NCBI GenBank assembly: GCA_964627245.1 | Contig: CAZVGS010000002.1 | Location: 26,923-90,922 of the forward strand | Direction of reading: 5' to 3' | DNA: 64,000 nt | DNA from: an uncultured Gammaproteobacteria bacterium | GTDB lineage: Bacteria; Patescibacteriota; Microgenomatia; Levybacterales; GWA1-39-11 | Part shown: one piece after another, positions 246 to 18,423 of the stretch | Numbering within the stretch: position 1 is the stretch's first letter | Layout of the letters: each line of letters starts with the position of its first letter | The notes under the pieces: model-generated | The model's input: the letters and a program-made list of their open reading frames with translations, nothing else | What the model was told of the DNA's origin: nothing | The model's database searches: none | Made by a program: the position numbers and the translations under genes

Positions 246-508
246 ACCCACATATTGTATCAATCTCCAGGCTATAAAATCCACCCGAGGCGAAATGAGA
301 CAAATGAGACAGTAGTTAAAAAGGGTGTCTTTTTTGTCACCTACTCCTACCACAAAGTAATCAATGCAGATTTTTTGATCTATTCAAACAATACTGGCTG
401 GTAGTTTTAACTTTTAAGACAAACTTGATAAGAGATAGTATGCTTTTGTTTAAAAATTGCTATACTGATAGTAGGGAATATTTTTGAAATTTGACTCAAT
501 AAACATGT

Positions 509-3500: not shown

Positions 3501-5728
3501 ATTCTACCGCTACGCGTTTTCTTGTCCAGCAATCGACTTCAAGTTCGATAGCAAAGTTGACACCTTTGTTTGGGAGCACAGTCGTAGACCAGGGAGATGC
3601 TGTAAAAATTGACGCGCAATTCTTGTCCTCTGCAGGCGCACCTATAAATGACGCAACTGCGACTATAAATATTTATAACCCAAGCGGAACCCTGGTTGTA
3701 ACTGCGCAGACAATGAGTTATATCGCAAGTTCAAACGGTATATACAGATATTCATATACCATCCCTTCAACCAGCGGAAGTTATCTGTATGATGTGACGG
3801 CAACTTCGGGAAGCACCACAGGATACGGAGCCGAAAACTTTGAGGTAAGGACAATCGTTTCTGATATCAGTTCTGCCAAATCGGCAGCCGAATCCGCTCA
3901 ATCAGCAGCTGTGTCAAATCAATCGACCCTTTCTACCATCAACACAAATCTCAATACTGCCAACACCAATATTAATACTATCAATACGAATGTTTCTGCC
4001 ATAAAAAACGCTACAGTAAGTGTGACAGGAGTAATCTCTGACTCTTCTCCGTCTGATTCATCTTTCAAAACCAATTTGACTGCCGGGAAAGATGATTTTT
4101 ATAAAAATATGGTAATTACTTTTACATCTGGTGACAATTCCGGCCAATCCAGAAGAATATCCAGCTATTCCCAGTCTGACAAGAAAATAAGCGTCGATCC
4201 GTCATTCTCTTATACCCCTGCCGATGGAGATACTTTTGTTATTAATGTAGGCTCTGTCCGAGCAGAGGAACTTTCTGGCTCGGCCAAGTCAACGATCGAA
4301 TCAGTCCAAACAAAACTCAACTCCCTATCGGGGACTCTGCCGTCAAACTTCTCGGGTGTTTATGACCAGCTTGTAACTATAACCAATCAGCTCTCATCAC
4401 TCGGGGCTATCAAAGGCAACGGAGCCGAGGCACTTTATGATCTTTCTCCTGCCAATAAAGACGATATCAAATATTTAAAAAATAAAATTCTTGATCTGCA
4501 AGCAGCTATGGAAATCACCAAGGCCATGCTTTCGGGTGATCAAAATTCTGTATTTTCCACCTGGTATACATTTAATTCCGTGGTATTGAATATGCTGATT
4601 GCCAATCCGACAGATCGTGACGCGACAATTCCCTTTAAAGCCTATCTGCCAAAAGAGGCCAAACCCGAGCACATCATCTCCTCCGGCGGGATGAAGGTGG
4701 AATATGATGAGGGTGCAAATGCGTATTATGTCAGCGGTGAGTTTGATTTAGATGCAGGCGATTCTATTACTAAACAGGTTGAAATCAAGGACATTTGGTT
4801 GATAGATGAAAGCGAATTGAATGGATATAAAACTCAGGCAAATGATTTATACAATGAAGCCAAGTCTACTGCTTACTCGGCTCAAGCGTTGGTTTTGAAA
4901 AATGATACGAATAACCGGATTGATAAAATTCTACGCTCTCAAAAAGAAAATAACGCCGATCCCACCGAACATATCCAAACCTTCCGCAATAATCAGGATG
5001 ATCTGATATCTATAAAGGATAATCTGAAAAAAATGACAGATCTTGTCACTTCTGCTGGAGCAGGAAGAGGGATGTTGGCATCAGTCGGAGGGATACAGAC
5101 TGTCGCCTCGTGGGGAATTATTGTCATGCTTATAGCCGGTTTTGTAATTTTAGGAGTTTTCTCTTACACAATGTGGAAGCACCAGATGATGGTAACAGCT
5201 CTGGCTTCCGGTAAGCTTCAGGATGGCAAAAGAAGATTGTCGCCTGAATTAGTTGGTAGTAATGTCTTGGATGAGATAAAAAAGCCGATGGTAGCATTAA
5301 GTATACCTCGACTGAATCTTCATTTCTTGACGGCAATTTACAAGTTAAAATGGCTGGCGTTGTTGGGTTTGGTAATAATAATTATTTTTGCTTTTTATAA
5401 AGGGTTTGTTTCCAACCCATGGCAAGCATTAATAACCAATCCAACTTCTATTCCAACAGTCTCACCAACATCTATTCCATCTCCAATACCTAGCCCAACG
5501 CCTGTTGAGAAAAAAGTAACAGTGCTGGAAACCGAAACAGGATGGTTAAACGTCAGGGAAGAACCGACTATAAAAAGTGAAGTTCTAGGCAAGGCAGACG
5601 TTGATAAAACGTATACAGAACTTGACAGAGAAGAAAACGATTTACAGGAAGAGTGGATAAAAATCAGATTAAATAATGAGATCGAAGGTTGGGTTTTGGG
5701 AAAGTATGTAGAAAAAGCTTCAAACTAG
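509..5728 (+). CDS. giant membrane-anchored surface protein (repeat modules, Fn3-like modules, C-terminal SH3b-like domain)
   Basis: 1739-aa ORF. N-terminal hydrophobic anchor. Six ~95-aa repeats carry a G(F/I)(Q/E)PD(L/F)V motif. Two modules end in YYWRVRY (Fn3-like). N/T-rich coiled-coil-like segment, two TM helices near aa 1530-1600, PT-rich linker, C-terminal GW..W..V SH3b-like domain. Confidence 0.75.
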   Translation: MNMKQRVSIKKPLTQKLKGFFSGIRKPLLALFFLFTFSSLFLTSQVFASQSFLSQTGLVNSNNTILEIILSVVLVLSLGLSLAWILIYLKHRHREHEYTGAAGSHKAHDNFSDIKYHLWLLKHLPFKLQPTKVKNHAHQPYTLKDNFLFLLFHPYFGALRKAIAFWLIISISFSSSGIYFLANASPTQAAGDFSIKTGYFLGSGVTRSITGLGFQPELVIIKSDTAAGQLVWKSSAMPANVSTYLGVATADNTETEITLDADGFTVSAALEVNTANVNYTYVALAGSDCTSAGVFCVGSYTGDGASTKSITTGFQPDLVWAKRTTALAGVFRTSSMSTNHAGYFSATANNTTGTFFTTLDGTGFTAGLTNNTNGGKYYYVAFKNIAGKTTVGQFTGNGVDNRDISGVGFEPDFVFVKQDSAVTPVFNTTDMYGDYSAFTTAAANAVNNIQSLDSDGFQVGNSTSVNAAGIVSHYFAIGGSPDPSPAGSFLMERGNYTGTGVSHVISTSFVPNLVIVKGDTIQYAVWSTSLEGDATEYFAAAGAAFTSGINIITDTSGFTVGTNATVNSNGITYEYIAFGNATSPRLGNGAADFYIGSYTGNGLDGRKIDHLGIGADMVVIKRTNGTANQSFWKTTSPVMTDNTTAYFSATTDDTTGVLVKTLDSGGFTLGSNAGTNAAGATYNWFAFKEGANFDIGSYAGDGVADKEITGVGFQPDFVWTKRNSAIAAVHKSSDSGIASNYSQHFMNLANDTNDIKTFTSDGFTLGNSAEVNTSGGTYRYAAWDSSTSSNPPSTPTNSSPAGGATAQNLNATLTGSAYSDPDSNAQTDSQWQVDDDSDFATPVWTRTAGASGVTTSVTSANGTFANELSGKTELDHATTYYWRVRYSDGTYSSWSTGTSFTTNTISTPTHSSPADQATVTTLTPTLTTSAFSDTQSGHTSANAQWQISASSSFSSPIYDSGTVSYGASLVVPSATLSNGNVYYWRVRYQDSTSQWSSYSTATRFLVQQSTSSSIAKLTPLFGSTVVDQGDAVKIDAQFLSSAGAPINDATATINIYNPSGTLVVTAQTMSYIASSNGIYRYSYTIPSTSGSYLYDVTATSGSTTGYGAENFEVRTIVSDISSAKSAAESAQSAAVSNQSTLSTINTNLNTANTNINTINTNVSAIKNATVSVTGVISDSSPSDSSFKTNLTAGKDDFYKNMVITFTSGDNSGQSRRISSYSQSDKKISVDPSFSYTPADGDTFVINVGSVRAEELSGSAKSTIESVQTKLNSLSGTLPSNFSGVYDQLVTITNQLSSLGAIKGNGAEALYDLSPANKDDIKYLKNKILDLQAAMEITKAMLSGDQNSVFSTWYTFNSVVLNMLIANPTDRDATIPFKAYLPKEAKPEHIISSGGMKVEYDEGANAYYVSGEFDLDAGDSITKQVEIKDIWLIDESELNGYKTQANDLYNEAKSTAYSAQALVLKNDTNNRIDKILRSQKENNADPTEHIQTFRNNQDDLISIKDNLKKMTDLVTSAGAGRGMLASVGGIQTVASWGIIVMLIAGFVILGVFSYTMWKHQMMVTALASGKLQDGKRRLSPELVGSNVLDEIKKPMVALSIPRLNLHFLTAIYKLKWLALLGLVIIIIFAFYKGFVSNPWQALITNPTSIPTVSPTSIPSPIPSPTPVEKKVTVLETETGWLNVREEPTIKSEVLGKADVDKTYTELDREENDLQEEWIKIRLNNEIEGWVLGKYVEKASN

Positions 5729-5729
5729 T

Positions 5730-6152
5730 ATGAAAATTGTTTTTGCTTTGCTTTTGTCTTTTATTGCTCCGATTATCTTGTTGCCTGTAGAGCAAATATT
5801 GAATTATCCCCATATTATAGAAGAAGCAGTTAAGCTTCTCGCGGTAACACTAATAATCTTTCAATCAAAACAAGGCAAGAAAAATTATTTAATGGTGGCT
5901 GTTTTAGTAGGCGTACTTTTTACCATTTCAGAAAGCGTGCTCTATTTGGTTAATTCTTTCCAAATGGATAATTTTTCACTTATTCCACAAAGAATTATTG
6001 TAACCGGAATTCTTCATAGCGCCACCTGCGTCCTAATCTATATCCTGGGAAGAAAAAGCTGGTGGCTATTGGGTGCTGGATTTGTTCTTGCTGTGCTTAT
6101 TCACTATTACTTTAATATATTCATAACAAGTTACGTCCCCGTCCGCTTTTAA
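5730..6152 (+). CDS. small polytopic membrane protein, PrsW/CPBP-like motifs (EExxK ... HxxxN)
   Basis: 140 aa, 4 predicted TM helices. Contains EEAVK and HYYFN motifs reminiscent of the PrsW protease family. Weak. Confidence 0.4.
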   Translation: MKIVFALLLSFIAPIILLPVEQILNYPHIIEEAVKLLAVTLIIFQSKQGKKNYLMVAVLVGVLFTISESVLYLVNSFQMDNFSLIPQRIIVTGILHSATCVLIYILGRKSWWLLGAGFVLAVLIHYYFNIFITSYVPVRF

Positions 6153-6190
6153 ATATTTTGCAATAATTGTGGGGTTAGTATAATTGCGCT

Positions 6191-6952
6191 ATGGGAAAGC
6201 AAAAATACTTTGAAGAGCGTGAATTAAGGGTCAATCAGAAGCTGAAAATTCTACTTGAAAGAAAAGATTTTCAAACTGATATTGCAGTTTTTCGAAAGAA
6301 GTGGAACATTTCGAAAGGTGGTTTTAAAACGGAAGATGGGTATCGGGAGTGGATGGGATGGCTAGAAACACAGACTGATAAATACATTGATGAAAACTGG
6401 AGTAAATGCCGAGCGGAACTTCAAGAACTGTCAAAACAAGGCAAACTAAGCGAACGAGAGGAGTTAAATAGGAAATTTAATCATCAGTCACCTAGAAACG
6501 CTTTTCATTATGAAATCCACAATTTATTGTTTAAACATAAGATTCCAACTTCCTGGTATAGCGGAATGCGACTTTACTTGTTAAGTAATGATTTAGGTTC
6601 AGCTCGAGTACCGTTAAATAATGTTACGGTACAAATAACTTGGAATGAGCAAACAGGTGAACGCCAACTCTCCCTTCTGCTAACAGCAGATTCAACGATG
6701 GATGATGTTAAAGCTGTTTGGAAACCACTAGTTATGCCCGAGCTTAGAAAACTGCACGATTATTCTGTAGTTAAAGGCAGATACAAACCTAACCTGGAAC
6801 TTGATAAACGAGTGCATGAATTATGGAAAGCTGGTGACAATACCTATGAGCAAATTGCTGAGGTAATTAAAAGCGAATTCCCTATAAGTTCTAATTTTAT
6901 GTATACGGATGTATCTAACGCCCTTAAAAGGTATAAGAAACGCTTCGGTTAA
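6191..6952 (+). CDS. hypothetical protein
   Basis: 253-aa ORF with no recognisable motif. Sits just upstream of the MTase/terminase island. Confidence 0.45.
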   Translation: MGKQKYFEERELRVNQKLKILLERKDFQTDIAVFRKKWNISKGGFKTEDGYREWMGWLETQTDKYIDENWSKCRAELQELSKQGKLSEREELNRKFNHQSPRNAFHYEIHNLLFKHKIPTSWYSGMRLYLLSNDLGSARVPLNNVTVQITWNEQTGERQLSLLLTADSTMDDVKAVWKPLVMPELRKLHDYSVVKGRYKPNLELDKRVHELWKAGDNTYEQIAEVIKSEFPISSNFMYTDVSNALKRYKKRFG

Positions 6953-7081
6953 GAATCACGCTTAATTCGTAACGTATCGCTTCTTTTCCCCCTCCCCTAC
7001 AATTTCCTTAAACTACTGAATTCTGAAAATGTATAAGTTTTCAGTGGTTTATCCATACAATTTGAGTAGAGGTACAAAACT

Positions 7082-8368
7082 ATGATTAAACAGCCACAAC
7101 ACAATCTAAAAATTGAATATGTTGACGTAGAGAAACTGATTCCAGCTGTATATAACCCTCGCACTTGGGATGAAGCGGCAATTAAAAATCTCACATCAAG
7201 TATTAAAGGTTTTGATATTGTCGATCCGTTAATCGTTAATAATGTCAAAGGTCGGGGAAATATTGTCATCGGTGGTCACTTTAGGTTGGAGATAGCCAAA
7301 CGCTTGGGATATAAACAGGTACCTGTCGTTTACGTCACCATTCCTGACATTGATAAAGAAAAAGAATTAAACCTCAGGCTTAACCGCAATACCGGAGCCT
7401 GGGATTTTGAGCTTCTGAAAGAATTTGACGTTAATCTTCTTCTTAATGTTGGCTTTGATGATACGGACCTTTCCCATATCTGGGATGATGCGCTATCAAT
7501 TGAAGATGACAATTTCGATACTGAAAAAGCCATTGAAGAAATCGGTACTCCAAAAACAAAACTTGGGGATTTGATTAAACTCGGCAACAATTTCTTGATT
7601 TGCGGTGCTGCAACTGATCCGACAGCTGTAAAAAGACTAGTTGGAGCAAATAAGATCCATATTTTAAATTACGACCCTCCGTATAACATTTTACTTGATT
7701 ACCATAAAGGGATTGGCACAAATGGTAAATATGGAGGAAAACAGACAAATGACAATAAAACGGATGAAGACTATCGAAGTTTTCTTTTAAAAACACTTCA
7801 GAATGGGCTAATAGTTGCTAACGATGTCTGTCATGTCTTTTGCTGGTGTGATGAAACGTATATCGGATTAGTTCAGGGAATATACCAAGAACTTGATATT
7901 GAAAATAAGCGGGTGTGTTTATGGATCAAGAATAATCAAAACGCCACCCCTCAGATTGCTTTCAATAAAGCCTACGAACCATGCGTGTATGGAATTAAAG
8001 GTAAACCACATCTCGCACCAACGCCTACTAACCTGAACGAGATACTCAATAAAGAGGTCGGAACAGGTAATCGACTCCCAGATGACATTCTTGATCTCTT
8101 TAACATTTGGTTGGCAAAAAGGTTGCCCACAAGCGAGTATGAACACCCGACACAAAAGCCACCAACGGTATATGAGAAGTCATTACGTCGTTGTACGAAA
8201 CCTGGAGATTCAGTTTTGGATGTATTTGGCGGTTCAGGTACCACATTAATAGCCTGTGAGCAATTGAAACGGCGAGCATTCTTGTGCGAGTTAGAGCCGA
8301 TTTTCTGCGATGTAATCATTAAGCGATTCCAGGAATTAACCGGGAAGGAGGCAGAATATGTCATTTAA
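7082..8368 (+). CDS. ParB-like nuclease domain fused to DNA methyltransferase (beta-class N6A/N4C)
   Basis: N-terminal ParB/Srx-like region. DPPY motif (LNYDPPYN) followed by C-terminal FGGSGTT (motif I after motif IV, the beta-class order). Confidence 0.8.
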   Translation: MIKQPQHNLKIEYVDVEKLIPAVYNPRTWDEAAIKNLTSSIKGFDIVDPLIVNNVKGRGNIVIGGHFRLEIAKRLGYKQVPVVYVTIPDIDKEKELNLRLNRNTGAWDFELLKEFDVNLLLNVGFDDTDLSHIWDDALSIEDDNFDTEKAIEEIGTPKTKLGDLIKLGNNFLICGAATDPTAVKRLVGANKIHILNYDPPYNILLDYHKGIGTNGKYGGKQTNDNKTDEDYRSFLLKTLQNGLIVANDVCHVFCWCDETYIGLVQGIYQELDIENKRVCLWIKNNQNATPQIAFNKAYEPCVYGIKGKPHLAPTPTNLNEILNKEVGTGNRLPDDILDLFNIWLAKRLPTSEYEHPTQKPPTVYEKSLRRCTKPGDSVLDVFGGSGTTLIACEQLKRRAFLCELEPIFCDVIIKRFQELTGKEAEYVI

Positions 8369-9119
8369 ATTAGGTGAAATTCGCCAGCTTGGAGAGCATT
8401 ACCTCCTTTGTGGGGATAGTACTGATGAATATACAGTGAAAATGTTTATTAAAGACCTGAAGATAAAATCTGTCATCTTCGACCCACCCTATGGTGTTCA
8501 CTATACCGAAAGCAAAGAATTTCTCCAAACCGGAACTGTCAAACACAGACCAATTATCAATGACTGGATAACTTCAGAACCAGAATATTACAAGTTTTCC
8601 TACTCATGGTTATCTTCAGTTATTCCACATCTAACCAAAAAGAATTCACTGTATATTTTTAGCTCTGACATCATGCTCTTTCCGGTACGGGAAGCGATGG
8701 CTCATGCTGGTATCAGCTTCGGGCAACTTCTTGTGTGGGTAAAAAATCACAACGTTCTTGGGAGACTTGATTACTTGCCCCAGCACGAAATGGTTCTCTA
8801 TGGTTGGTATGGTACCCATGAATTTATGAAATCAAAAGACAAAAGTGTCTTACTCTGTCCAAAACCCAATAAGAGCAAATTGCACCCAACCATGAAGCCA
8901 GTACCGCTTCTGAGACGACTTATATTAAACAGTACTCAAGTTGGAGATATTGTTTTTGATGGATTTGGAGGATCGGGATCGACTTTAATTGCTTGTGAAC
9001 AAACCAAACGGAAGTGTTTGATGATTGAACTGGATCCTGAGTATTGCCAAGTCATTTGTGATCGGTTTGAAATGATGACAAAAATTAAACCTAAAGAGGT
9101 GGAAACATTAAACGTATGA
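8358..9119 (+). CDS. DNA methyltransferase (beta-class N6A/N4C)
   Basis: DPPYG motif and C-terminal DGFGGSGST. Overlaps the upstream MTase stop by 11 nt (operon). Confidence 0.8.
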   Translation: MSFKLGEIRQLGEHYLLCGDSTDEYTVKMFIKDLKIKSVIFDPPYGVHYTESKEFLQTGTVKHRPIINDWITSEPEYYKFSYSWLSSVIPHLTKKNSLYIFSSDIMLFPVREAMAHAGISFGQLLVWVKNHNVLGRLDYLPQHEMVLYGWYGTHEFMKSKDKSVLLCPKPNKSKLHPTMKPVPLLRRLILNSTQVGDIVFDGFGGSGSTLIACEQTKRKCLMIELDPEYCQVICDRFEMMTKIKPKEVETLNV

Positions 9120-9595
9120 CAGATAATACGCCTGAAACCAGTATTCAAAAACGGATGGACATCAACAAAGAGTTGTTGATTGATCAGCTCAAGAAAACGC
9201 CCATTGTTCAAATAGCCTGCGAAAAGACGGGTGTTGGTCGGGCTACCTATTATCGCTGGCGGAAAGAGGACAGTGAATTTGCTGGCTTAGCAGATGAAGC
9301 GATTGCTGAAGGCAACGAACTGGTAAACGACATGGCAGAATCACAATTAATGGCAGCAATTCGGGATGGTAATTTAGGCGGAATCATCTTCTGGCTCAAG
9401 CACCATCACCCTCGATATGCCACCAGAGTTGAGGTAACGGCTAAATTAAAACATGATGATGAAACCTTAACTCCTGACCAGGAAGCGTTGGTTATGAAAG
9501 CACTTAAATTGGCAGCTCTTCTTCCCGATCCTAATATTACAAGTGATGCCACACAAGAAGCGGTTCAACCAAAAACAAAGGAGGGGCAATCATGA
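9116..9595 (+). CDS. phage terminase small subunit (HTH)
   Basis: 159 aa with an N-terminal HTH-like GRATYYRWRKED, immediately upstream of and overlapping the TerL gene. Confidence 0.55.
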   Translation: MTDNTPETSIQKRMDINKELLIDQLKKTPIVQIACEKTGVGRATYYRWRKEDSEFAGLADEAIAEGNELVNDMAESQLMAAIRDGNLGGIIFWLKHHHPRYATRVEVTAKLKHDDETLTPDQEALVMKALKLAALLPDPNITSDATQEAVQPKTKEGQS

Positions 9596-11130
9596 TAATC
9601 CATACATTAACCACTGAAGAGCTTAATGAGTTAAAGAAAAACCGCAAAGTCAGACGCACACTGGCAAAAAAGAGCCACTACTGGTTCTTTGCCATTTACT
9701 TGGGAGACTATATGGATTATTCATTTGCACCATTTCATCACGAAATGTTTTCGGTGAGTGAAGATCCAGGTTTATCGCTTGCCGTGATAGTTGCCTTCAG
9801 GGGATCAGGCAAATCAACGCTGTTCAGTTCGTCATATCCCATCTGGTCGATAATTGGAGCACAACAAAAGAAGTTCGTCTTGATTTTAGGTCAGACACAT
9901 AACCAAGCCCGACAACATTTAACCAATATTAAGCGGGAACTTGAAACAAACGACCTACTCAAAGCGGACATTGGACCATTTCAGGAATACAGTGATGAAT
10001 GGGGAGCAACCTCGATTGTTCTATCAAACTACGATGCCAAAATTGCTATTGCCTCAACTGAGCAAAGTATCCGAGGTATCAGACATGGTAAGTATAGGCC
10101 TGATCTGGTTATTTGTGACGATGTTGAAGACTTAAACAGCGTTAAGACAAAAGAAGGCAGAGACAAGATATTTAACTGGTTGACAGGTGAAGTAATGCCG
10201 ATTGGTGACCGGTACACCAAAACCATTATTATTGGAAACCTCCTTCATGAAGATTGTTTACTCATGAGGTTAAAAAACACTATTGATCAGGAACGGCTTG
10301 CTGGCAAATTTTTCGCCTACCCTCTCTTGACTGAAGATAATCAAATTACGTGGCTGGGGAAATTTCCTGATATGGTATCTATTGAAAAGCAAAAAGCATC
10401 CATTGCTTCGGATACTGCGTGGTACCGAGAATATTTGTTAAAAATTATCTCCGATGAAGATAGGCTGGTTAAACCCGAATGGATCCAGTATTATGACGAG
10501 CTACCTCAAGATTCTTCTAACAAGTTACGCTTTACGGCAACTGGCATTGATTTAGCCATTACTTTAAACGAATGGTCTGATTTTACTGCTATGGTATCAG
10601 CACACGTGTACGGCTACCGGGAGAAGCTTCGTGTATACATTCTTCCTAATCCGGTAAACGCAAAAATGGACTTTCCGATGACAGTGACAAAAGCGAAGGA
10701 TATATCTAAATCGCTGGGAAACGGTACCTATACCAAACTATATATTGAAGAAGTCGGTTATCAAAAAGCTCTTATCGATCAGCTTGTTGCACAAAATGTC
10801 CCAGCTGAACCGTTTAAAACCATGGGGCAAGATAAAAGAGCCAGACTTACTCTTGTTACCCATTTAATTCAGCAAGGAAAAGTATTATTTCCTCGACGTG
10901 GAGCAGAATCGTTAATCATGCAGCTAACGGGTTTTGGGATTGAAAAACAGGATGACCTGGCAGATGCGTTTTCTTTACTTTTATTGAAGATAATTGAGGA
11001 GGACAATAAATCAGGACCCAGTGTTACTATAATTTGTACCGGAAGTATTTATGATCAATACGACCCCATGAGAGGACTTTATCACGATTCCCTGGATAGA
11101 GATCCACTGACACTTAACTCGAGGTTTTAG
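9592..11130 (+). CDS. phage terminase large subunit
   Basis: Walker A FRGSGKST. C-terminal nuclease-like region with acidic DDLADAF. About 510 aa, typical of the Terminase_6 family. Confidence 0.8.
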   Translation: MIIHTLTTEELNELKKNRKVRRTLAKKSHYWFFAIYLGDYMDYSFAPFHHEMFSVSEDPGLSLAVIVAFRGSGKSTLFSSSYPIWSIIGAQQKKFVLILGQTHNQARQHLTNIKRELETNDLLKADIGPFQEYSDEWGATSIVLSNYDAKIAIASTEQSIRGIRHGKYRPDLVICDDVEDLNSVKTKEGRDKIFNWLTGEVMPIGDRYTKTIIIGNLLHEDCLLMRLKNTIDQERLAGKFFAYPLLTEDNQITWLGKFPDMVSIEKQKASIASDTAWYREYLLKIISDEDRLVKPEWIQYYDELPQDSSNKLRFTATGIDLAITLNEWSDFTAMVSAHVYGYREKLRVYILPNPVNAKMDFPMTVTKAKDISKSLGNGTYTKLYIEEVGYQKALIDQLVAQNVPAEPFKTMGQDKRARLTLVTHLIQQGKVLFPRRGAESLIMQLTGFGIEKQDDLADAFSLLLLKIIEEDNKSGPSVTIICTGSIYDQYDPMRGLYHDSLDRDPLTLNSRF

Positions 11131-11156
11131 TCCATCTCCTTGACTTCACAAAGCCT

Positions 11157-12494
11157 TTGCGTCATTCCTTGTGTTGTATGAAAAGGATGACAACCAAAGG
11201 AAAAACGAACGTAATCGAGTACTGCCTGTATGCGAGGAAATCTAGTGAATCAGACGAGCGTCAGGCAATGTCAATCGACTCGCAAATTAAGGAGATGCAG
11301 ATCGTTGCCAAACGGGAAGAACTAGAAGTCAAGGAAATTCGGGAAGAAAGCCACTCAGCTAAACTATCAGGGCAACGGCCGGTATTTAATCAACTTTTGA
11401 TAGACATTGAACAAGGAGAATTTGGAGGCATCTTAACTTGGGCACCAGACAGGCTAAGTAGAAACGCAGGTGATTTAGGAAAACTGGTTGATTTAATGGA
11501 TCAGGAAAAGCTCAAACAGATCAAAACCTACTCACAAACATTTTCCAATAATCCTAATGAGAAGTTTCTACTGATGATTCTCTGCTCTCAAGCTAAGCTG
11601 GAAAATGATAACCGAGGCTTAAATGTAAAGAGAGGGCTTCGAGCAAAATGCGAAATGGGATGGCGACCAGGAGTTGCACCAATCGGTTACAAAAACGTGA
11701 TGGCAAATAATCGAATAAGTGAAATAGTTTTAGATGAAGAACGAGCCTCAATTATTAGGCAGATATTTGAACGAGTTGCCGAAAAAGGACACTCAGGTCG
11801 AACAATCAAACAATGGTTAGATCGAATCGGATTTAGGACAAAAAATGATAAACCGCTGGCATTAAGCAAGATTTACTCTACTCTTAACAATCCCTTTTAC
11901 TGCGGCTCATTTGAATTTAACGGGGTGAAATATAAAGGAAATCATCCGGCAATTGTTACTAAAGCGATATTTGATAAAGCACAACAACAACTAGCCGTAC
12001 CACCCAAGGAATGGCACAAGAAAGTATTTCCTTTCAAAACTTTGTGCACTTGCGGCTCCTGCGGAGGAGGAGTAACAGCTGAAGAGAAATACAAAAAACT
12101 CAAATACGGTGGATTTACCAAACACGTTTATTATCACTGCGGAAGATCGGTTGATTACGAATGTGACGAACCATATATCACTGAGGAGGATTTAATCCAA
12201 CAATTAATCGGCCATATCAACAACATTAAAATCAACGAAAAATTAATCACTACCAGATTAAAATCCGAGATTGAACGCTTCCATGCTTTACGATCCCAAG
12301 TACTTCATCAGGAATACCTTGATGGGAACTTAAACCAATTTGACTACCCAGAAAAAGATCCTATTCCATCAGATACTGCAAAAGCATACCTGCTGCATGT
12401 ACTAAAAGCTGGGACTTCAGAAGAACGGCAATTAATACTCTCCGCAATCAAGACCAAATTCATCCTCACCCATAGGGAATTGAGAATAAAGTAA
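11157..12494 (+). CDS. large serine recombinase (integrase)
   Basis: N-terminal resolvase catalytic region YARKSS..R, recombinase domain, zinc ribbon CxxC..YHCGR, C-terminal coiled coil. About 50 bp from tRNA-Ser. Confidence 0.85.
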   Translation: MRHSLCCMKRMTTKGKTNVIEYCLYARKSSESDERQAMSIDSQIKEMQIVAKREELEVKEIREESHSAKLSGQRPVFNQLLIDIEQGEFGGILTWAPDRLSRNAGDLGKLVDLMDQEKLKQIKTYSQTFSNNPNEKFLLMILCSQAKLENDNRGLNVKRGLRAKCEMGWRPGVAPIGYKNVMANNRISEIVLDEERASIIRQIFERVAEKGHSGRTIKQWLDRIGFRTKNDKPLALSKIYSTLNNPFYCGSFEFNGVKYKGNHPAIVTKAIFDKAQQQLAVPPKEWHKKVFPFKTLCTCGSCGGGVTAEEKYKKLKYGGFTKHVYYHCGRSVDYECDEPYITEEDLIQQLIGHINNIKINEKLITTRLKSEIERFHALRSQVLHQEYLDGNLNQFDYPEKDPIPSDTAKAYLLHVLKAGTSEERQLILSAIKTKFILTHRELRIK

Positions 12495-12714
12495 TCCTCT
12501 TAACACTTCTTACAGGATATATAAAATAAAACTGGTTCAAGGTAGTTTTTAGTGGTTTTAGAAGAAAAACAGGAGCAAATCGAGGTTTTGCAGGTTTAAC
12601 AGTTTTTCTCTTCTCCAGGCTGCAAAACTGAAAAATGTCCAAAACGAGCTAAATTAGCAAGCCCCATTGGGCAATTCTCGCATAGCCTATGGGTCTACTA
12701 GAACTATAGGAATT

Positions 12715-12806
12715 TGGCGGAGGAGGGGGGATTCGAACCCCCGATACCCTTACGGGCATACACACTTTCCAAGCGTGCGCACTAGACCAACTATGCGACC
12801 CCTCCA
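12715..12806 (-). tRNA. tRNA-Ser (anticodon GGA), CCA encoded
   Basis: Reverse complement GGAGGGG... anticodon loop UUGGAAA, long variable arm, T-arm GGGGG-UUCGAAU-CCCCC, terminal GCCA. Confidence 0.8.
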
Positions 12807-12810
12807 TTCA

Positions 12811-12843
12811 TTAGCCATTAGACATTAGCCATTAGACATTAGC
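12811..12843. repeat. tandem 14-bp repeat (ttagccattagaca x2.4)
   Basis: Direct tandem copies read in the sequence, between tRNA-Ser and the 3' end of the NUDIX gene. Confidence 0.6.
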
Positions 12844-13262
12844 TTCATAATTATCGGTAAGGCTTTCTCGTAAACTTTTTTATCGGCATTGAAAGTGAGT
12901 CTTTCAATGACCTTATCTTTCTTAACCCACTCGACATTCTCCATTTCAAAATCGTGTTTCGTAATATCCCCGCCTATAAATTTCATTAAGTAATAATACA
13001 CTGTTTTTTTAACCTTTTCTCCTTCAAAAACGTACCAATAAGTAACGGGCTCTAGTTCTTCCAATATTTTTCCTCTCGCGCCCGTTTCTTCCTCAACCTC
13101 TCTTAAGGCTGTCTCTTCCTTTGTTTCTTTTTCCTTCTTGTCTCCTATAAGACCTTTAGGAAATCCCCAGCCATGGTGCTGGGAATGCTGGCACAACAGA
13201 ATATCAATTCCGTTACTTGTTTTATTAAAAACAACCCCGCCTGCTGAAAATTCAAATCTCAT
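12825..13262 (-). CDS. NUDIX hydrolase
   Basis: Nudix box GX5EX7REVEEETG present. Start trimmed to the internal Met (MRFEF), because the upstream part of the ORF overlaps two tRNA genes. Confidence 0.75.
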   Translation of the reverse strand: MRFEFSAGGVVFNKTSNGIDILLCQHSQHHGWGFPKGLIGDKKEKETKEETALREVEEETGARGKILEELEPVTYWYVFEGEKVKKTVYYYLMKFIGGDITKHDFEMENVEWVKKDKVIERLTFNADKKVYEKALPIIMKLMSNG

Positions 13263-13517: not shown

Positions 13518-14045
13518 TTATCTCTCCAGAGGAAAAGTCTTTGCTAGCCAATCACTGCTTTTTTCCATAAAGGTTGGCTTCATAACTTCACGGTATGGTA
13601 TATATCCTGCCATTACTCTTCTAACATGGTCTGATGGTACATCTCCAAGCGTAATTTTGAGCTCACCCGGAATAATACTTTTCGTTCTTATAATAAGAAC
13701 TTCCATTCCGTCCATCTTCTTGAAATAAAAGTCATAAAGTTCTTTCCAAATAAAAAAATGGTCCTCTATTTTTACTCCCTGATTGCTTATTCTATAGTGA
13801 AAATTTTGAGGAGGGGTTGAGCCTAGCGCAACTGAAAAAAAATAAAGCGCCAAAACAACAAACATTAAAAGATATTCAGAAAATACAAACAAGATTATAT
13901 CTATTAAAAAAACCAACATAAGACCTGTTACATAAAACTCTCTGCTTTTTTTCCTGTAGGGTCTGCCCGGCGCTGACCAGGAAATTAGTGTTTTTATATC
14001 TGAATAATGGTGTTTATATGATTGATTGTCGTTGGAATGTTCCAT
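13518..14045 (-). CDS. hypothetical membrane protein
   Basis: 175 aa with two central TM helices and no recognisable motif. Confidence 0.5.
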   Translation of the reverse strand: MEHSNDNQSYKHHYSDIKTLISWSAPGRPYRKKSREFYVTGLMLVFLIDIILFVFSEYLLMFVVLALYFFSVALGSTPPQNFHYRISNQGVKIEDHFFIWKELYDFYFKKMDGMEVLIIRTKSIIPGELKITLGDVPSDHVRRVMAGYIPYREVMKPTFMEKSSDWLAKTFPLER

Positions 14046-14086
14046 AGTTACACTATGGCAAAATTGAGGCGGAAAATCAACTCAAA

Positions 14087-14953
14087 TTAAAGCTCTTGAA
14101 GAGATGTGCCTTCACCAGACTTGTAGTCCCGGACATACTGAAGATAGCGCTCTGTTGAAGATAATCTTTTGTGTCCCAATACTTTCGAAAGAAAAACCAA
14201 AGAAATTCCATTTTTGAGGTGGTGCGCTACAAAAGTATGTCTTAGGTCATTGATCTTAACTTTTTCTATTCCTGCCTTTTTGAAATATCTCTCAACAGCA
14301 TCTCTTATGTTCCTGACTAAAAATGGCCTTCCCGTCTTGGTCACAAACACGTGTTGGTCTTCAGAATTAACTCTGCTTTCCATATATCTTTTTAATGCTT
14401 CCTTTGCGCGTCTATTAAGAGGCACTTCGCGTGCTTCATGGCCCTCATACGGCCTTATGTGAAGTGTGTTGTCGTTGATATCATCAACCCGAAGATTTGC
14501 AAGCTCACCAATTCTAATTCCTGTTTGAAGCAAAACTTCAATTATGGCGTAAATTCTAGGATCAACTGAAGCCGCATCTCTTAATGCTCTGTATTCTAGA
14601 GGCGACAACATCCTTGGTGGATTCAATTCATACTTGGGATGCTCTACTAAAAGTGATGGATCATCAGTGATTAATTCATTTACCTTAAGATATCTGTAAA
14701 AAGTTCTTGTTGAGTTGAGCTTTCTTGAGAGGGATTTAGGCGTATAACCTTCATCTTTGAGTTTGGTTAAAAAAGCCTGAATATCATCTCCACCGATTTC
14801 ATGAACATGGTTTTTCTCCAGCGACTCGAGGAATTCAATCAATTGCTGAATATCTTTACCATATGCTAATATGGTCGCAGATGCCCTATTCTTTGATTTT
14901 AGAAAGTCCTGGAACTTTCCGTGCGCATCTCGTAGCTTTAATTCTGTTGCCAT
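14087..14953 (-). CDS. tyrosine recombinase XerC/XerD family
   Basis: Catalytic residues R..K..HxxR..H..Y (GIRIGEL, LRHTF, LGH, ERYLQY). 288 aa, typical Xer size. Confidence 0.8.
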   Translation of the reverse strand: MATELKLRDAHGKFQDFLKSKNRASATILAYGKDIQQLIEFLESLEKNHVHEIGGDDIQAFLTKLKDEGYTPKSLSRKLNSTRTFYRYLKVNELITDDPSLLVEHPKYELNPPRMLSPLEYRALRDAASVDPRIYAIIEVLLQTGIRIGELANLRVDDINDNTLHIRPYEGHEAREVPLNRRAKEALKRYMESRVNSEDQHVFVTKTGRPFLVRNIRDAVERYFKKAGIEKVKINDLRHTFVAHHLKNGISLVFLSKVLGHKRLSSTERYLQYVRDYKSGEGTSLQEL

Positions 14954-15048
14954 AAAAAGTTTATAATAAGCTATAACAAAACAATAAATCTATAATTTGG
15001 AAGTTTTAGCTTATCTTAAATTAATTTGAGCCTATAATATCAGTAAAA

Positions 15049-15408
15049 ATGCGCTTTGTCAACACAAAAACATTTATTCTTCTGGGAATTATAATAATAC
15101 TTCTCCTCCTTATCAAGAATATTGTGAGTTCAATCCTCTCTTTGAGGCAAAACAGTCATATAGTAACAACTCTGCGTCAACAGGAAGTAGCGGAAAAGCA
15201 AAAAAGGGAATTCTTAAAACAACAGTTATATTTTTCTAATACACCCGAATTTATTGAAAATCAGGCAAGGGAAAAATTGGGAATGGTAAAACCGGGTGAA
15301 TACGTTGTACTTGCCCCTCCTCCAAAGATTGAGGAAAAAAAGAAAGTTGCACTTGCCTCTCCTCCAAATTGGAAAAAATGGTGGAACCTCTTTTTCCAAG
15401 ACAAATAA
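15049..15408 (+). CDS. septum formation initiator FtsB/DivIC-like
   Basis: N-terminal TM, coiled coil, then the conserved AREKLGMVKPGEYV motif. Confidence 0.55.
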   Translation: MRFVNTKTFILLGIIIILLLLIKNIVSSILSLRQNSHIVTTLRQQEVAEKQKREFLKQQLYFSNTPEFIENQAREKLGMVKPGEYVVLAPPPKIEEKKKVALASPPNWKKWWNLFFQDK

Positions 15409-15471
15409 GCTTTTTCAAATCCTTGCTGAGAGGTAAACGAAACTTGCCCCCCACACTAAGCCTAAACGTGT

Positions 15472-15539
15472 TGCGGGGTAAGGAGTTGAACCTTATCTGC
15501 AAGATTATGAGCCTCGCGTGCAGCCGTACACTACCCCGC
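15472..15539 (-). tRNA. tRNA (anticodon CAU; Met/Ile2), atypically short D-arm
   Basis: Acceptor GCGGGGU/ACCCCGC, T-arm UAAGG-UUCAACU-CCUUA, anticodon loop CUCAUAA. Only 68 nt, with a 4-nt D-loop and two GU pairs in the anticodon stem. Confidence 0.55.
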
Positions 15540-15631
15540 GGTGTGTAAGGTATTTATTATAACTTTTTCCAGCCTCAATTACAAGCTGCGCTGCTTGTTT
15601 TCTACGTCTCTTTCTAGTAAAATATCTTGTT

Positions 15632-16351
15632 ATGAAAAGAGAGTCACTAAAAGTTGAGAAAAGAGAAGTTGTCGGAAAAAAAGTTAAACATTTGAGGCGG
15701 AATGGCATTCTTCCTGCAAATATGTTTGGTAAGGGGGTTAAATCACAGTCTCTGCAACTTGCCCTAAAAGATTTTGAAGAAATCTACAAAAAAGTTCACG
15801 AAACAGGTCTTGTTGATCTATCTATAGGAAGTGAAGTGCATCCTATTTTGATACAAAATGTACAAATTCACCCGATTACCCATACTCCAATTCATGCCGA
15901 CTTTTTTAAGGTAAATCTAAAAGAAAAGGTGAGGGCATCCATTCCGATAATTGCTGTTGGGGAACCCAAGGCTGTTAGTGAGAAAATCGGAGTTCTTCTT
16001 CAACCCCTTTCTGAAGTAGAGGTTGAAGCTCTACCTGCCGACTTGCCTGAGAATTTGGAAATCAATGTAGAAAAGCTTGTAGCAATTGATGACAACCTTA
16101 CAATTGCCGACCTCAAGGCACCTAACGGCGTTGAAATATTGGCAGAACCTCACGAAATGATCTTTAGAATCGATGAACTCGTATCTGAAGCGGCGGAAGA
16201 GCTTGCAGCCGAAGAAGAAGCGGAAGCTCAAGCAGCATCAGAGGAAAGTGAGAGTGAAGGAAAAGAGGGCGCGTCAAATGAGTCCAGCGGAGAAGGTGGA
16301 GAAAAAGGAGAAAGCAACACTTCGGAAGACAAAGATAAAGCTTCCGAATAA
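15632..16351 (+). CDS. rplY: 50S ribosomal protein L25 / general stress protein Ctc
   Basis: N-terminal L25 region (VGKKVKHLRRNGILPANMFG...), beta-barrel region, and an acidic E/A/S-rich C-terminal tail. Confidence 0.85.
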   Translation: MKRESLKVEKREVVGKKVKHLRRNGILPANMFGKGVKSQSLQLALKDFEEIYKKVHETGLVDLSIGSEVHPILIQNVQIHPITHTPIHADFFKVNLKEKVRASIPIIAVGEPKAVSEKIGVLLQPLSEVEVEALPADLPENLEINVEKLVAIDDNLTIADLKAPNGVEILAEPHEMIFRIDELVSEAAEELAAEEEAEAQAASEESESEGKEGASNESSGEGGEKGESNTSEDKDKASE

Positions 16352-16741
16352 TCAACCCTTAAGCATTTCATTCTTTAATTTAACGGCATCTTCAAATAAT
16401 GGATCTATTCTTAAAGCTTTTTCAACGTAATCCAGTGCTTCCAATTTATATCCGGCGTTAAATGCACTCAATGATGTATTGTATAAGATGTCAGGGACAT
16501 TGGGGAATTGACTGATGACACTTTTCCAGTACTCATACTTCTTAGCTTTGTTTTCATGAATTGCTAGCGCATTACCGTATCCATTTGTCAGAATGACTAA
16601 TAATTGAAGCTGAAAAAGCGCAAAAAGTATCAAAACAGCTAGTAAAAAATTCCTCAAGTGATAGGCAAGAGACGAGGCCTTTATATATTTTTTATATTTC
16701 TTCGGAAATATCGCGGTAATAATTCGGGAATTAATTTTCAT
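16352..16741 (-). CDS. TPR-like membrane protein (hypothetical)
   Basis: N-terminal TM helix and a C-terminal TPR-like helical repeat (YVEKALRIDPLFEDA). Confidence 0.4.
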   Translation of the reverse strand: MKINSRIITAIFPKKYKKYIKASSLAYHLRNFLLAVLILFALFQLQLLVILTNGYGNALAIHENKAKKYEYWKSVISQFPNVPDILYNTSLSAFNAGYKLEALDYVEKALRIDPLFEDAVKLKNEMLKG

Positions 16742-17003
16742 ACTAAATTTTATGGCTTTACCCGCTAAAGTTCAAGTCCTCATTACTTAGAAGAAGAAAA
16801 GAAGAATTGTTGAAACAAACAGAAAGGCGACTGAAAGAAGCATTTGAAGCGACATTGCAAGATTTACGCTTCCAGGAAAACTTATACTTAACTTTCTTTC
16901 CATTTTTCTCGCCTCTTTAGTATGAAAATAATTGACTGCAACAATTGCGCAAGCCCCGATTAGCACTATTGCCTTAAATGAGGTTGTTATCATCGGTATT
17001 ATG

Positions 17004-17663
17004 TTAGTTGGCAGTATATCCATAGCCTACATCTCCTAAAAATTTGTATTTGTTAGGCTTTAGTTCTTTTTCTTTTAACCAAAGCTGTTGTGAGTATTTC
17101 TGCACTGTCTGCGGGCTCTGATGAATTTGCGCTGAAAGAAGATTTGCAATTTTTCTTGGAGATCTTATGTCTTTAATTATAAATTCTTCCTTGTGTGTTG
17201 GTCTATCAAAGGTCAACTCAACATTGCCTATCCCTATTAGCTCAGGGATTAATCCATACATCTCAACGTCAATTTCAGTGCATCTTATCTGATCCAGTAA
17301 CACGGAATTAATTGCTTCTGAGACCAACGGGCTGTAATGCACCTCAATAATCTGCTTGTTTGTTGCAATATATAGATGGAAACTCCAATGGATTAAATCC
17401 CTAAGCGAAGCTATGCTTCCAATTAAAACAACGAGAAAAAAAGTGCTAAATGCGAGACTAATGCTGTTAAGTGCCAGTAGGAGTGCCGAAGAAATAATTA
17501 CCGCAATAAGAAGTGAGACGAAAGTTTTTTGAATGAGCCGCACAACAAGAGGCAGCCAATGTTCGCGGGTTGCAAATATCAACTCTTCATCTTCGAAAAG
17601 CTTGAACTTTTCAATTTGCGAGTCGTTAAGTCTGTCTCTTAGAAAAAATTCCTTAAATTTCAT
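17004..17663 (-). CDS. membrane protein with bacterial PH-like domain (YdbS/YdbT-like)
   Basis: Two adjacent TM helices followed by a soluble domain. Architecture resembles membrane-flanked bPH proteins. Weak. Confidence 0.35.
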   Translation of the reverse strand: MKFKEFFLRDRLNDSQIEKFKLFEDEELIFATREHWLPLVVRLIQKTFVSLLIAVIISSALLLALNSISLAFSTFFLVVLIGSIASLRDLIHWSFHLYIATNKQIIEVHYSPLVSEAINSVLLDQIRCTEIDVEMYGLIPELIGIGNVELTFDRPTHKEEFIIKDIRSPRKIANLLSAQIHQSPQTVQKYSQQLWLKEKELKPNKYKFLGDVGYGYTAN

Positions 17664-17722
17664 GTTAGCTTATACTAGCTGTATATGATTGTTGGTTCAG
17701 TAAGTATTCTTACAGCAAAACT

Positions 17723-18421: not shown

Positions 18422-18423
18422 TT

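Follow-up and report, generated by a model that had tools for sequence, protein, structure and literature searches.

Positions 191 to 12722 of the window, the whole 64,000-nt stretch of DNA analysed here, form a single, intact 12.5-kb mobile element of the integrative island type that encodes both terminase subunits and two DNA methyltransferases (MTases) and lacks virion genes; most likely it represents a type of phage satellite that is new. The island is bounded at both ends by the 8-bp core TGGCGGAG, and its features and immediate surroundings are as follows.

63-138, minus strand: tRNA-Met(CAT) (ARAGORN and Rfam)
191-198, no strand: attL core TGGCGGAG, an 8-mer identical to 12715-12722
199-508, plus strand: left non-coding arm upstream of the giant gene, conserved in the copies L001 and L002
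509-5728, plus strand: 1739-aa membrane-anchored surface protein, cargo (Pfam and translated sequence)
5730-6152, plus strand: 140-aa PrsW-like polytopic membrane protein, cargo (Pfam PrsW-protease, 6e-8; translated sequence)
6191-6952, plus strand: 253-aa protein, function unassigned, mostly helical with a basic C-terminus
7082-8368, plus strand: ParB_N domain fused to a beta-class DNA MTase (ParB_N, 4.5e-9; N6_N4_Mtase, 6e-27)
8358-9119, plus strand: second beta-class DNA MTase (N6_N4_Mtase, 3e-29)
9116-9595, plus strand: putative terminase small subunit (TerS), HTH type (PHROG TerS families, 4.5e-10 to 2.5e-4; HTH_Tnp_1_2, PF13022)
9592-11130, plus strand: terminase large subunit (TerL) (PHROG_38, 4e-72; Terminase_6C)
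11178-12494, plus strand: large serine integrase (Pfam Resolvase, Recombinase and Zn_ribbon_recom; PHROG_95 integrase, 1.6e-64)
12495-12714, plus strand: right non-coding arm, ending in CTATAGGAATT
12715-12722, no strand: attR core TGGCGGAG, directly past which the window, L001 and L002 diverge
12715-12805, minus strand: tRNA-Ser(GGA), the integration target (ARAGORN; Rfam tRNA, 51.5 bits)

The core TGGCGGAG is the 3' end of tRNA-Ser(GGA), comprising the last 8 nt of the gene with the CCA included, and this tRNA is intact, its 3' end being supplied by the island junction. On the left, homology between the window and two further copies of the island (L001 and L002) begins at position 193, and the attL core of the L002 copy reads TGCGGAG. 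The core is also the precise point at which assembly contigs from four sequencing runs are interrupted, and contigs from three independent runs end at 12722. The left arm is an attP-derived half-site whose bases 199-219 (CATGCGGGTCTGGAACCCCAC) resemble a tRNA T-arm on inspection of the sequence, matching tRNA-Ser at 13 of 21 bases, and the right arm is the attP-derived left half-site, its sequence up to the core being the same in L001, L002 and L163-L166. These flanking half-sites are only partly similar, and the identical 8-bp core occurs without long direct repeats. Every gene named in the original prediction is present at its given coordinates. That prediction had placed the start of the element at 7082 and the integrase about 50 bp from the tRNA; the true start is at 191, and the genes between 509 and 6952 therefore belong to the island, and the integrase stop codon lies 220 bp from the tRNA 3' end. 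The att repeats that it had proposed to look for between 5730 and 7080 and in the tRNA-Ser flank exist as the 8-bp core at both ends, with the left copy at 191, outside the first of these intervals. Directly left of the island, tRNA-Met(CAT) is host flank outside the element, with housekeeping genes for MurI, MurD, an aminoacyl-tRNA synthetase and FtsH left of the window, and the genes right of the island include NUDIX, tRNAs, DivIC, L25 and GlmS.

The integrase beside tRNA-Ser(GGA) is recognised as a large serine type by its Pfam domains, as had been predicted, and the tRNA is called by ARAGORN. Its reading frame is open from a TTG at 11157, with ATG starts at 11178 and 11187, and the resolvase domain (PF00239, 2.9e-20) displays the catalytic motif YARKSSESDERQ with its serine nucleophile in translation. 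C-terminal to the catalytic domain are PF07508 (5e-17) and a zinc beta-ribbon (PF13408, 8.5e-7), and the 8-bp TGGCGGAG is a short att core of the kind used by large serine recombinases. The best NCBIfam match of this protein is CcrB-like (1.6e-33) and falls far below the family cut-off. This predicted large serine integrase probably inserted the island into the last 8 nt of tRNA-Ser(GGA), though a search for an attP circle or junction and for an empty attB site found neither.

The same island is present in L001 at tRNA-Ser(GGA), with 7 SNPs in 12.5 kb, all of them within the gene for the 1739-aa protein, and with host flanks that are only 66-80% identical. In L002 it differs by 1 SNP and is located at a different tRNA-Ser, next to an unrelated left flank. 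Because the island is almost unchanged (1-7 SNPs) across three genomic contexts with diverged flanks and at another tRNA-Ser, comparison of the three copies indicates recent horizontal transfer between hosts.

The reading frames of the ParB-MTase, the second MTase, TerS and TerL overlap by 11, 4 and 4 nt, respectively, which is compatible with translational coupling of the four-gene block; the original prediction had asserted such coupling outright, and the overlaps suggest it. Its two tandem MTases are present, the first carrying the predicted ParB-like domain, and in both proteins motif IV (DPPY) precedes motif I (FGGSG), the order typical of the beta class (NYDPPY...FGGSGTT in one and FDPPY...FGGSGST in the other; PF01555, 6e-27 and 3e-29). 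No restriction endonuclease was found among the eight island proteins by Pfam, PADLOC or NCBIfam, so the second MTase is an orphan, and the cognate endonuclease that would sit beside the MTase in a type II restriction-modification system does not appear. The TerS annotation is putative, with moderate scores behind it, and the gene is syntenic in 78 loci.

TerL, predicted to be intact at these same coordinates, has ATPase and nuclease motifs that are intact by alignment with 30 homologues. Among these, Walker A (G71/K74/S75/T76), Walker B (D176/D177/E179) and the nuclease residues D320 and E386 are invariant, and D454, D455 and D458 are kept in at least 90%. The protein narrowly passes the Terminase_6C cut-off (22.7 versus 22.6 bits), matches the NCBIfam model termin_lrg_T7 (2.6e-15), and its profile matches the T7 gp19 TerL structures 8dgc and 4bij. 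Comparison of the window copy with L008 gives a pN of 0.14 and a pS of 0.82, the latter saturated, from which TerL is judged to be under purifying selection.

Capsid, portal and tail genes, predicted to be missing, were found neither in the element, nor in the rest of the 64-kb window, nor just to its left, and Pfam and PHROG searches of all eight proteins revealed no such genes or pseudogenes between the att sites. Likewise, tblastn and HMM searches with 15 structural-protein clusters of related phages detected no structural homologues in the islands or the window. The related phages are contigs whose TerL is 38-40% identical to that of the islands and which encode portal, protease, major capsid protein (MCP), adaptor, tail and tape-measure genes, together with a full-length ParB-MTase upstream of TerL that shares 30-33% identity with the island ParB-MTase over its full length. 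In a simple neighbour-joining tree without support values, all island TerLs group together in one clade, whose sister group is these phages with full head and tail modules. The islands appear to derive from the packaging block of a siphophage (ParB-MTase ... TerS-TerL) and to have kept this block along with the integrase.

Some 120 related loci, drawn from IMG/VR and from MAGs of Patescibacteria, with approximately 20 kb examined around each relative, share the order ParB-MTase-(MTase)-TerS-TerL...serine integrase. An MTase lies no more than 2.5 kb upstream of TerL in 115 of 123 island-type loci, and a same-strand serine integrase lies downstream of TerL in 85 of the 123, at a median gap of 1.2 kb. 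Two further islands are delimited by tRNA 3'-end repeats, L020 (17.2 kb; 26-nt repeats, 2 mismatches) and L032 (13.6 kb; 20-nt repeats, 1 mismatch), and a CTCGTGC-like motif approximately 20 nt ahead of the crossover is common to related islands. Many relatives carry a divergent LexA/S24-type repressor, or an XRE and ImmA pair, adjoining the operon; no repressor or other regulator was recognised in the window copy by Pfam, PHROG or NCBIfam. The same databases returned no match to a primase-replicase or replication module in the window copy, and no primase-replicase was seen among those frequent gene clusters of the lineage that have an annotation, several others being unannotated. No replication origin was recognisable in the window island, and no lysis genes were found in the islands. 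Judged from gene order and the TerL tree, this lineage is large, monophyletic and Patescibacteria-associated, and capsid-less terminase islands of this kind have apparently not been described before.

These comparisons bear directly on the suggestion, made in the original prediction as one of two options, that the element is a decayed prophage, taken here as the right end of a formerly complete one that has lost its structural genes. In favour of such a remnant, phage-derived genes adjoin an integrase and a tRNA, and virion genes are absent. However, both ends are defined, the 12.5-kb element is found in its entirety in three contexts at a distance of 1-7 SNPs, every reading frame is intact, and TerL is under purifying selection. 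Furthermore, the gene order is conserved across about 120 loci that lack portal and capsid genes, carry variable cargo and fall into one TerL clade, and independent decay would not converge in this manner; decay of a prophage is for these reasons rejected as very improbable.

The cargo is the host's gain from the island. The 1739-aa protein contains DUF7483 repeats, Ig/MG2-like domains, a coiled coil, N- and C-terminal transmembrane helices and a C-terminal SH3_3 domain, and its 384 homologues, mostly 1000-2900 aa in length, are encoded on long Patescibacteria chromosomal contigs. Assignment of this protein to a phage tail was considered on the basis of PHROG 'tail fiber' matches and rejected, as these are repeat-type matches, and the protein belongs to a chromosomal family of multi-pass membrane or surface proteins that occurs throughout the CPR. 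In relatives, the cargo includes restriction-modification systems, diversity-generating retroelements (DGRs; RT and bAvd), TIR-like and caspase-like genes, CopA/CsoR copper resistance, and similar genes. The 253-aa protein has no Pfam, PHROG, NCBIfam or PADLOC match, though it has 950 representative homologues, and in all 11 of those examined an MTase follows directly, indicating a conserved slot upstream of the ParB-MTase. Its AlphaFold2 model (pLDDT 83) found no match in a PDB fold search and hence adopts neither an HK97 nor a portal fold.

Several island genes are unannotated, namely clusters c6, c7 and c12 and the gene for the 253-aa protein, and this is what could be said for a self-sufficient minimal virus with capsid proteins that have diverged beyond recognition. 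Against this, the non-core genes of the window copy encode two membrane proteins and the helical 253-aa protein that lacks either virion fold, and no unannotated gene is conserved across the lineage, leaving such a virus with the slightest probability of the explanations considered.

The best reading of the data, and on balance a probable one, is that of a satellite-like island with its own terminase that is packaged into helper capsids. Following induction, the island would be excised by Int-mediated recombination at the 8-bp core and recognised by its own TerS, and its own TerL would cut the island DNA and pump it into procapsids of a co-infecting or co-resident helper phage, probably a member of the sister phage clade. 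The two orphan beta-class MTases may methylate island DNA and so guard it against restriction by the next host, where Int would re-insert it at a tRNA-Ser 3' end. Weighing against this model, the window copy has no recognisable replication module, origin or regulator, although concatemers fit for packaging would have to arise from 12.5 kb, and its TerS is annotated on moderate scores. A satellite supplying its own terminase and methylation was the other option of the original prediction and fits all the comparative evidence, with the hijacking of capsids kept here as the conditional part of the model; neither of the observations that the original prediction named as refuting it was made, since no structural genes lie just outside the element and the TerL motifs are unbroken.

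An alternative that accepts the mobility of the island, and is considered rather unlikely, is that the MTase-TerS-TerL block acts inside the cell, either in phage interference, by competing for or cutting concatemers or procapsids as a form of defence or exclusion, or in processing of the island's own DNA, with transfer occurring otherwise, for example by natural transformation. The islands are rich in defence cargo, have no replication module, and have no identified helper phage; methylases beside a nuclease recall self/non-self discrimination, by a resemblance that is suggestive, and the near-identical copies in different hosts require some transfer route and do not specify which. Conversely, the order of TerS, TerL and ParB-MTase matches that found in the sister phages, whose copies function in packaging; TerL has conserved not only its nuclease motifs but also those of the ATPase (translocase), a motor that a pure nuclease would not need; and no PADLOC model matches TerS or TerL.

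A less probable alternative still is a GTA-like or split system, in which head and tail genes are located elsewhere in the same chromosome, as a domesticated cluster or resident prophage, and the host genome itself is the helper. The sequence examined amounts to 64 kb in this genome and to roughly 20 kb at each related locus, and some genomes carry two islands (L026/L028 and L033/L036), both of which would accommodate such an arrangement. Nevertheless, structural homologues are found in neither the 64-kb window nor the approximately 120 loci, and a fixed chromosomal partner is excluded, unless universal, because the island moves between hosts with flanks only 66-80% identical. CPR genomes are, moreover, about 1 Mb in size and contain few prophages (PMC7739484).

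Extending the satellite reading from this island to its lineage, it is tentatively proposed, with slightly less than even confidence, that Patescibacteria host phylum-wide and ancient 'terminase-only' satellites of 12-17 kb that insert at tRNA genes, combine a serine integrase with TerS, TerL and orphan methylases fused to ParB, and obtain all virion parts from helpers. This would signify that satellites are a major vehicle for defence systems, DGRs, metal resistance and giant surface proteins among CPR species, and that many CPR 'proviruses' in viral databases are such satellites.

Several known systems share parts of this organisation. SCCmec elements, mobilised by Ccr recombinases, also carry cargo and use a short att core, and the island integrase matches CcrB below the cut-off. 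SCC elements are not known to encode a terminase or to integrate at tRNA genes. The core set of a PICI comprises an integrase at one end, a regulation module (alpA, merR or stl type), a primase-replicase, TerS and a capsid-morphogenesis gene (PMC10085698), of which the window copy has the terminal integrase, here a serine recombinase, and TerS. Like PICIs and SaPIs, the islands are 12-17 kb long, bear a terminal integrase, have site-specific att sites, encode a TerS of their own, carry accessory or defence genes as cargo, lack structural and lysis genes, and in the relatives share a divergent repressor module. They differ in adding TerL and one or two orphan MTases, in using a large serine recombinase, in their Patescibacteria hosts, and in lacking the primase-replicase and capsid-morphogenesis genes, with the window copy also lacking a recognisable regulator. 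The cfPICIs likewise encode both TerS and TerL but, unlike the island, have as their defining feature a set of capsid, portal, protease and head-tail adaptor/connector genes of their own (PMC10085698). The PLEs of Vibrio cholerae are satellites that also integrate by a large serine recombinase (PMC6002521) and would be expected to depend on their helper ICP1 for packaging, whereas the island has its own terminase; among annotated island proteins, and by annotation only, no PLE marker was found. In the packaging genes there is a likeness to IMG/VR siphophage contigs (e.g., L138, L143-L148 and L153), which have a homologous TerL with a full-length ParB-MTase upstream but follow TerL with portal, protease, MCP, adaptor, tail and tape-measure genes, where the islands place cargo and a serine integrase.

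Copies of the island that are identical or nearly so are present in public assemblies, and their comparison with the window gives the ends of the element. A search for att repeats in the left region and at the tRNA-Ser flank finds the 8-mer TGGCGGAG at 191–198 and 12715–12722. The homology of the copies starts at 193, inside the first of these cores, while the common sequence on the right runs through ...CTATAGGAATT-TGGCGGAG with divergence directly after, and this second core forms the final 8 nt of the tRNA-Ser(GGA) gene, CCA included. The element is accordingly placed at 191–12722, including the giant gene that the original prediction had left outside its extent. The element-side sequence CATGCGGGTCTGGAACCCCAC beside attL has 13 of 21 bases in common with the T-arm of the tRNA, a likeness compatible with an attP half-site that mimics attB.

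Genes and predicted att sites of the island, with the flanking tRNAs (window coordinates; all eight protein-coding genes lie in one orientation)
63–138, tRNA-Met
509–5728, 1739-aa protein
5730–6152, PrsW-like 140-aa membrane protein
6191–6952, 253-aa protein without family match
7082–8368, ParB_N-MTase fusion
8358–9119, second MTase
9116–9595, TerS-like protein
9592–11130, TerL
11157–12494, large serine recombinase (Int)
12715–12805, minus strand, tRNA-Ser(GGA), 3' end toward the integrase
Predicted attP, ...CTATAGGAATT-TGGCGGAG-CATGCGGGTCTGGAACC...
Predicted attB, ...AAAACAAAATTT-TGGCGGAG-GAGGGGGGATTCGAACC...

The eight genes, assigned with Pfam and PHROGs, occupy 509–12494, with overlaps of 11, 4, and 4 nt between the successive frames of the two MTases, TerS and TerL. 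In each MTase the motifs follow the beta-class order (DPPY, then FGGSG), and no restriction enzyme is found among the island genes. The original prediction had named TerS, TerL, two MTases, a serine integrase and tRNA-Ser(GGA) correctly, its sole numerical error being an integrase–tRNA distance of about 50 bp, which measures 220 bp. Promoter and terminator counts in a scan of 1–13000 do not exceed the shuffled expectation. The G+C content is 45–49% in 1001–4000, the DUF7483-repeat part of the giant, putative surface-protein gene, vs. ∼38% elsewhere in the island and in the chromosome.

The copy in the L001 contig, located at the syntenic tRNA-Ser(GGA), differs from the window by 7 substitutions in 12.5 kb, every one in the giant gene, and its adjoining chromosome (tRNA body, NUDIX, tRNA-Ser(CGA), tRNA-Arg) is just 66–80% identical. 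A second copy, in L002, carries 1 substitution, adjoins a different tRNA-Ser and has an unrelated left flank. From these comparisons, the island is judged to be mobile and to have moved recently. The contigs of three further sequencing runs end exactly at 12722 and the L001 contig begins exactly at 193, as expected of a de Bruijn assembler where reads continue in more than one way. Searches for the attP junction and for integrase-bearing contigs found no excised circle: the junction GGAATTTGGCGGAGCATGCGGGTC has no exact match, and the right terminus of the island no match, in JGI metagenome contigs, where the null result on attP says nothing about excision because the island itself is absent from that collection, and the additional integrase-bearing contigs contain no circular junction, though ends exactly at the core were seen among them. 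Look-ups of the neighbouring NUDIX and 175-aa genes for an empty attB gave occupied sites or contigs that stop before the junction.

Several other features accompany these tRNA sites. Directly upstream of the 5' end of tRNA-Ser(GGA), at 12806–12845, lies a CATTAGC/CATTAGA tandem repeat, whose length differs in the L170 contig (an alignment 7 nt longer, 1443 vs. 1436 nt, at 99.5% identity). The window at 13518–14953 (minus strand) encodes a XerC/D-like tyrosine recombinase (288 aa) and the unannotated 175-aa gene, beside tRNA-Ser(CGA), tRNA-Arg and tRNA-Ser(GGA); the recombinase could be an ordinary chromosome-dimer resolvase or the remnant of another tRNA-associated element. About 1.5 kb past its island copy, L001 contains a different element (14087–20938) with tRNA-Ser(TGA), a 520-aa serine recombinase, HTH_36, DUF5659, a Terminase_2-like small subunit, an RrnaAD-type methyltransferase, XRE regulators, and Gp49, which looks like a second serine-integrase element, equipped with a TerS gene and sited at a tRNA-Ser nearby. 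In four loci (L002 13124–13376, L026 19219–19562, L042 13960–15908, L066 18796–19062), ARAGORN predicts a tRNA-Ser whose anticodon, ACT, is unusual and which either adjoins a tRNA-Ser(GCT) of opposite orientation or lies no more than 2 kb from it; the ACT tRNA directly abuts the island end in L002 and L042, and the GCT tRNA faces the island in L066.

No structural genes lie immediately outside the element, where their discovery would have refuted the original prediction. Beyond the left edge of the window, L006 encodes MurI, MurD, an aminoacyl-tRNA synthetase, YidD, and FtsH, and to the right of the island follow NUDIX, two tRNAs, the XerC/D-like recombinase, DivIC, L25, a Crp-like regulator, GlmS, and a class I tRNA synthetase. 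Searches with 15 structural clusters from sister phages (tblastn and HMMs) gave no match in the window or in any island locus except L136, where the 'portal' HMM match of a 159-aa protein covers only a 50-aa zinc-ribbon-like stretch, so that a portal remnant was rejected; by megablast, the island likewise has no match among GenBank phages. Farther along the window, at 47349–47568 (plus strand), a group I catalytic intron (Rfam, 77 bits vs. a gathering score of 50) sits in an apparently intergenic stretch between ORFs 46409–47053 and 47602–49182.

None of the three non-core genes of the island is a cryptic virion gene. The 1739-aa protein matches the PHROGs 'tail fiber' and 'virion structural protein', in multiple stretches over its DUF7483 repeat region, and was rejected as a tail fibre on the repeat-type nature of these matches, the several transmembrane helices predicted at each of its ends, and its 384 homologues, mostly 1000–2900 aa, which lie on long chromosomal contigs of up to 1.19 Mb and come, where a source is named, from Pacebacteria, Colwellbacteria, Dojkabacteria, CPR3, and Paceibacterota. 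We take this protein, which has a C-terminal SH3_3 domain, to be island cargo that functions at the CPR cell surface. The 253-aa protein has 950 representative homologues and lies directly upstream of the ParB-MTase in every locus examined; its confidently predicted fold (pLDDT 83) is mostly helical, has no PDB match, and is neither HK97 nor portal.

TerL itself is intact, and the disrupted motifs that would have refuted the original prediction are not seen. In an alignment of the window TerL with 29 homologues, residues that are invariant or nearly so (≥90% of the sequences) include G71, K74, S75, and T76 of Walker A and D176, D177, and E179 of Walker B and the catalytic glutamate. The acidic residues expected for an RNase H-like nuclease are D320, E386, and D454/D455/D458, the last three being the nearly invariant positions. 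The TerL profile matches the ATPase domain of the T7 gp19 terminase structures 8dgc and 4bij, a match that required a profile search, as the single sequence found none in the PDB, and the NCBIfam T7-type TerL model is matched at 2.6e-15. Comparison with the 79% identical homologue of L008 gives a pN of 0.14 vs. a (saturated) pS of 0.82, which indicates that TerL is under purifying selection.

Related loci are numerous. A scan limited to one genome per species gave 72 loci with TerLs 43–79% identical to that of the window, ∼65 of them from Patescibacteria-type MAGs (Saccharibacteria, Paceibacterota, Taylorbacteria, Nomurabacteria, Peribacteria, and others), and IMG/VR contains at least 375 stretches matching the TerL family, of which the best 80 were fetched. 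Among the complete CPR genomes, BOLA01000001, OY970175, and JALQTW010000001 are examples with an island. Among the 123 island-type loci obtained by our own gene calling and clustering, a ParB-MTase lies within 2.5 kb upstream of TerL in 115, TerS is recognisable in 78, and a same-strand serine integrase follows TerL in 85 within the DNA examined. The median distance from TerL to Int is 1.2 kb, the extremes being an overlap and a gap of 9.6 kb. These gaps and the upstream regions are filled by variable cargo: type I and type III R-M systems; reverse transcriptase with bAvd (DGR cassettes); SMODS-like nucleotidyltransferase, caspase-like, TIR-like, DUF2726, and DUF2779 proteins; thermonuclease; and a CopA-type ATPase with a CsoR-type repressor. 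A LexA/S24-type repressor gene is present in 24 island-type loci, and in the 19 of these that belong to the first 72 it immediately precedes the operon, in most cases divergently oriented; other loci have an XRE and ImmA/IrrE pair. In many loci, Int is followed by a tRNA (Ser, Glu, Gln, His, or Asn) on the minus strand, its 3' end toward the island, and the islands of L020 and L032 (17.2 and 13.6 kb) are delimited by direct repeats of a tRNA 3' end.

Some loci depart from this plan. The DGR-type pair is a recurrent cargo in or beside islands, co-located in 6 loci (L029, L038, L048, L099, L100, L109) and positioned between TerL and Int in L029, L038, and L100. One sub-lineage has two full-length tandem TerL genes (L086 3809–6938, also L087, L088, L089, and L091), both of which match PHROG_38 in L086 (1.7e-80 and 5.6e-71). 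A second serine integrase in the same orientation upstream of the core or MTase (L025, L033, L036, L070) suggests tandem insertion of family islands, and two MAGs contain two separate islands each (L026/L028 and L033/L036).

TerLs 38–40% identical to that of the island occur in IMG/VR contigs (for example L143–L148) where PHROG matches identify virion genes downstream: portal (1.6e-112), protease, major head protein (5.7e-90), head–tail adaptor, minor tail protein, and tape measure protein. These sister phages have a full-length ParB-MTase upstream of the terminase, 30–33% identical to that of the island over ∼420 aa. An hhalign comparison of their putative TerS with the island TerS gives a probability of only 10–57%. 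In a neighbour-joining tree of 151 TerLs, rooted on distant Geobacter-type sequences and without support values, the island TerLs all group in a single clade, and its sister is the clade of the phages.

The original prediction offered two readings, a decayed prophage or a satellite-like element. Decay of a prophage is excluded because the island is a bounded unit that has passed near-unchanged between hosts and shares an intact core with ∼120 loci of one clade. By its gene content, the island has the organisation of a phage satellite: it is small, integrates through Int at att sites, has a packaging specificity of its own, host-useful cargo and, in relatives, repressors, and is without virion or lysis genes. 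The satellite-like reading, with the terminase and methylation supplied by the element, fits the comparisons made here, and packaging in helper capsids is what we infer. The observations concern anatomy, conservation, mobility, and phylogeny only; excision, packaging, and a role for methylation we infer as follows. Int would excise the island, whose DNA would be recognised by its own TerS and then cut and translocated by its own TerL into the procapsids of a helper, most plausibly a sister-clade phage; the orphan MTases would methylate the DNA, protecting it in new hosts, where it would re-integrate at a tRNA-Ser 3' end. What weighs most against this mechanism is the absence of a helper phage, of a replication function, and of evidence from particles or circles. 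In the strongest rival, the terminase module has an intracellular role, such as interference with the packaging of a phage, and the island is transferred by another route.

Little is known of gene exchange among the ultra-small CPR bacteria, most of which are uncultured, and descriptions of their mobile elements are few. Their defence systems and giant surface proteins are considered relevant to the epibiotic lifestyle. If the islands are packaged into helper capsids by their own terminase, they would signify a new satellite architecture, with TerS and TerL and without capsid genes or a replicase, and a concrete, testable route of gene flow across CPR species that includes such systems and proteins. 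TerL-based virus detection, moreover, counts islands as viruses, most of the best 80 of the matching IMG/VR stretches being islands.

The island falls outside the definitions of the known satellite families (PMC10085698). PICIs have primase-replicase, regulator, and capsid-morphogenesis genes, which the island lacks, and are without the TerL that it carries, whereas cfPICIs are defined by capsid and connector genes, of which the island has none. A full-text literature search found no description of the island family, an absence that is not proof of novelty. A TM7 study used viral hallmark genes to define 'prophage groups' (PMC7739484), some of which may belong to this type of island. The island would be a form of phage satellite, or of tRNA-targeting integrative island.
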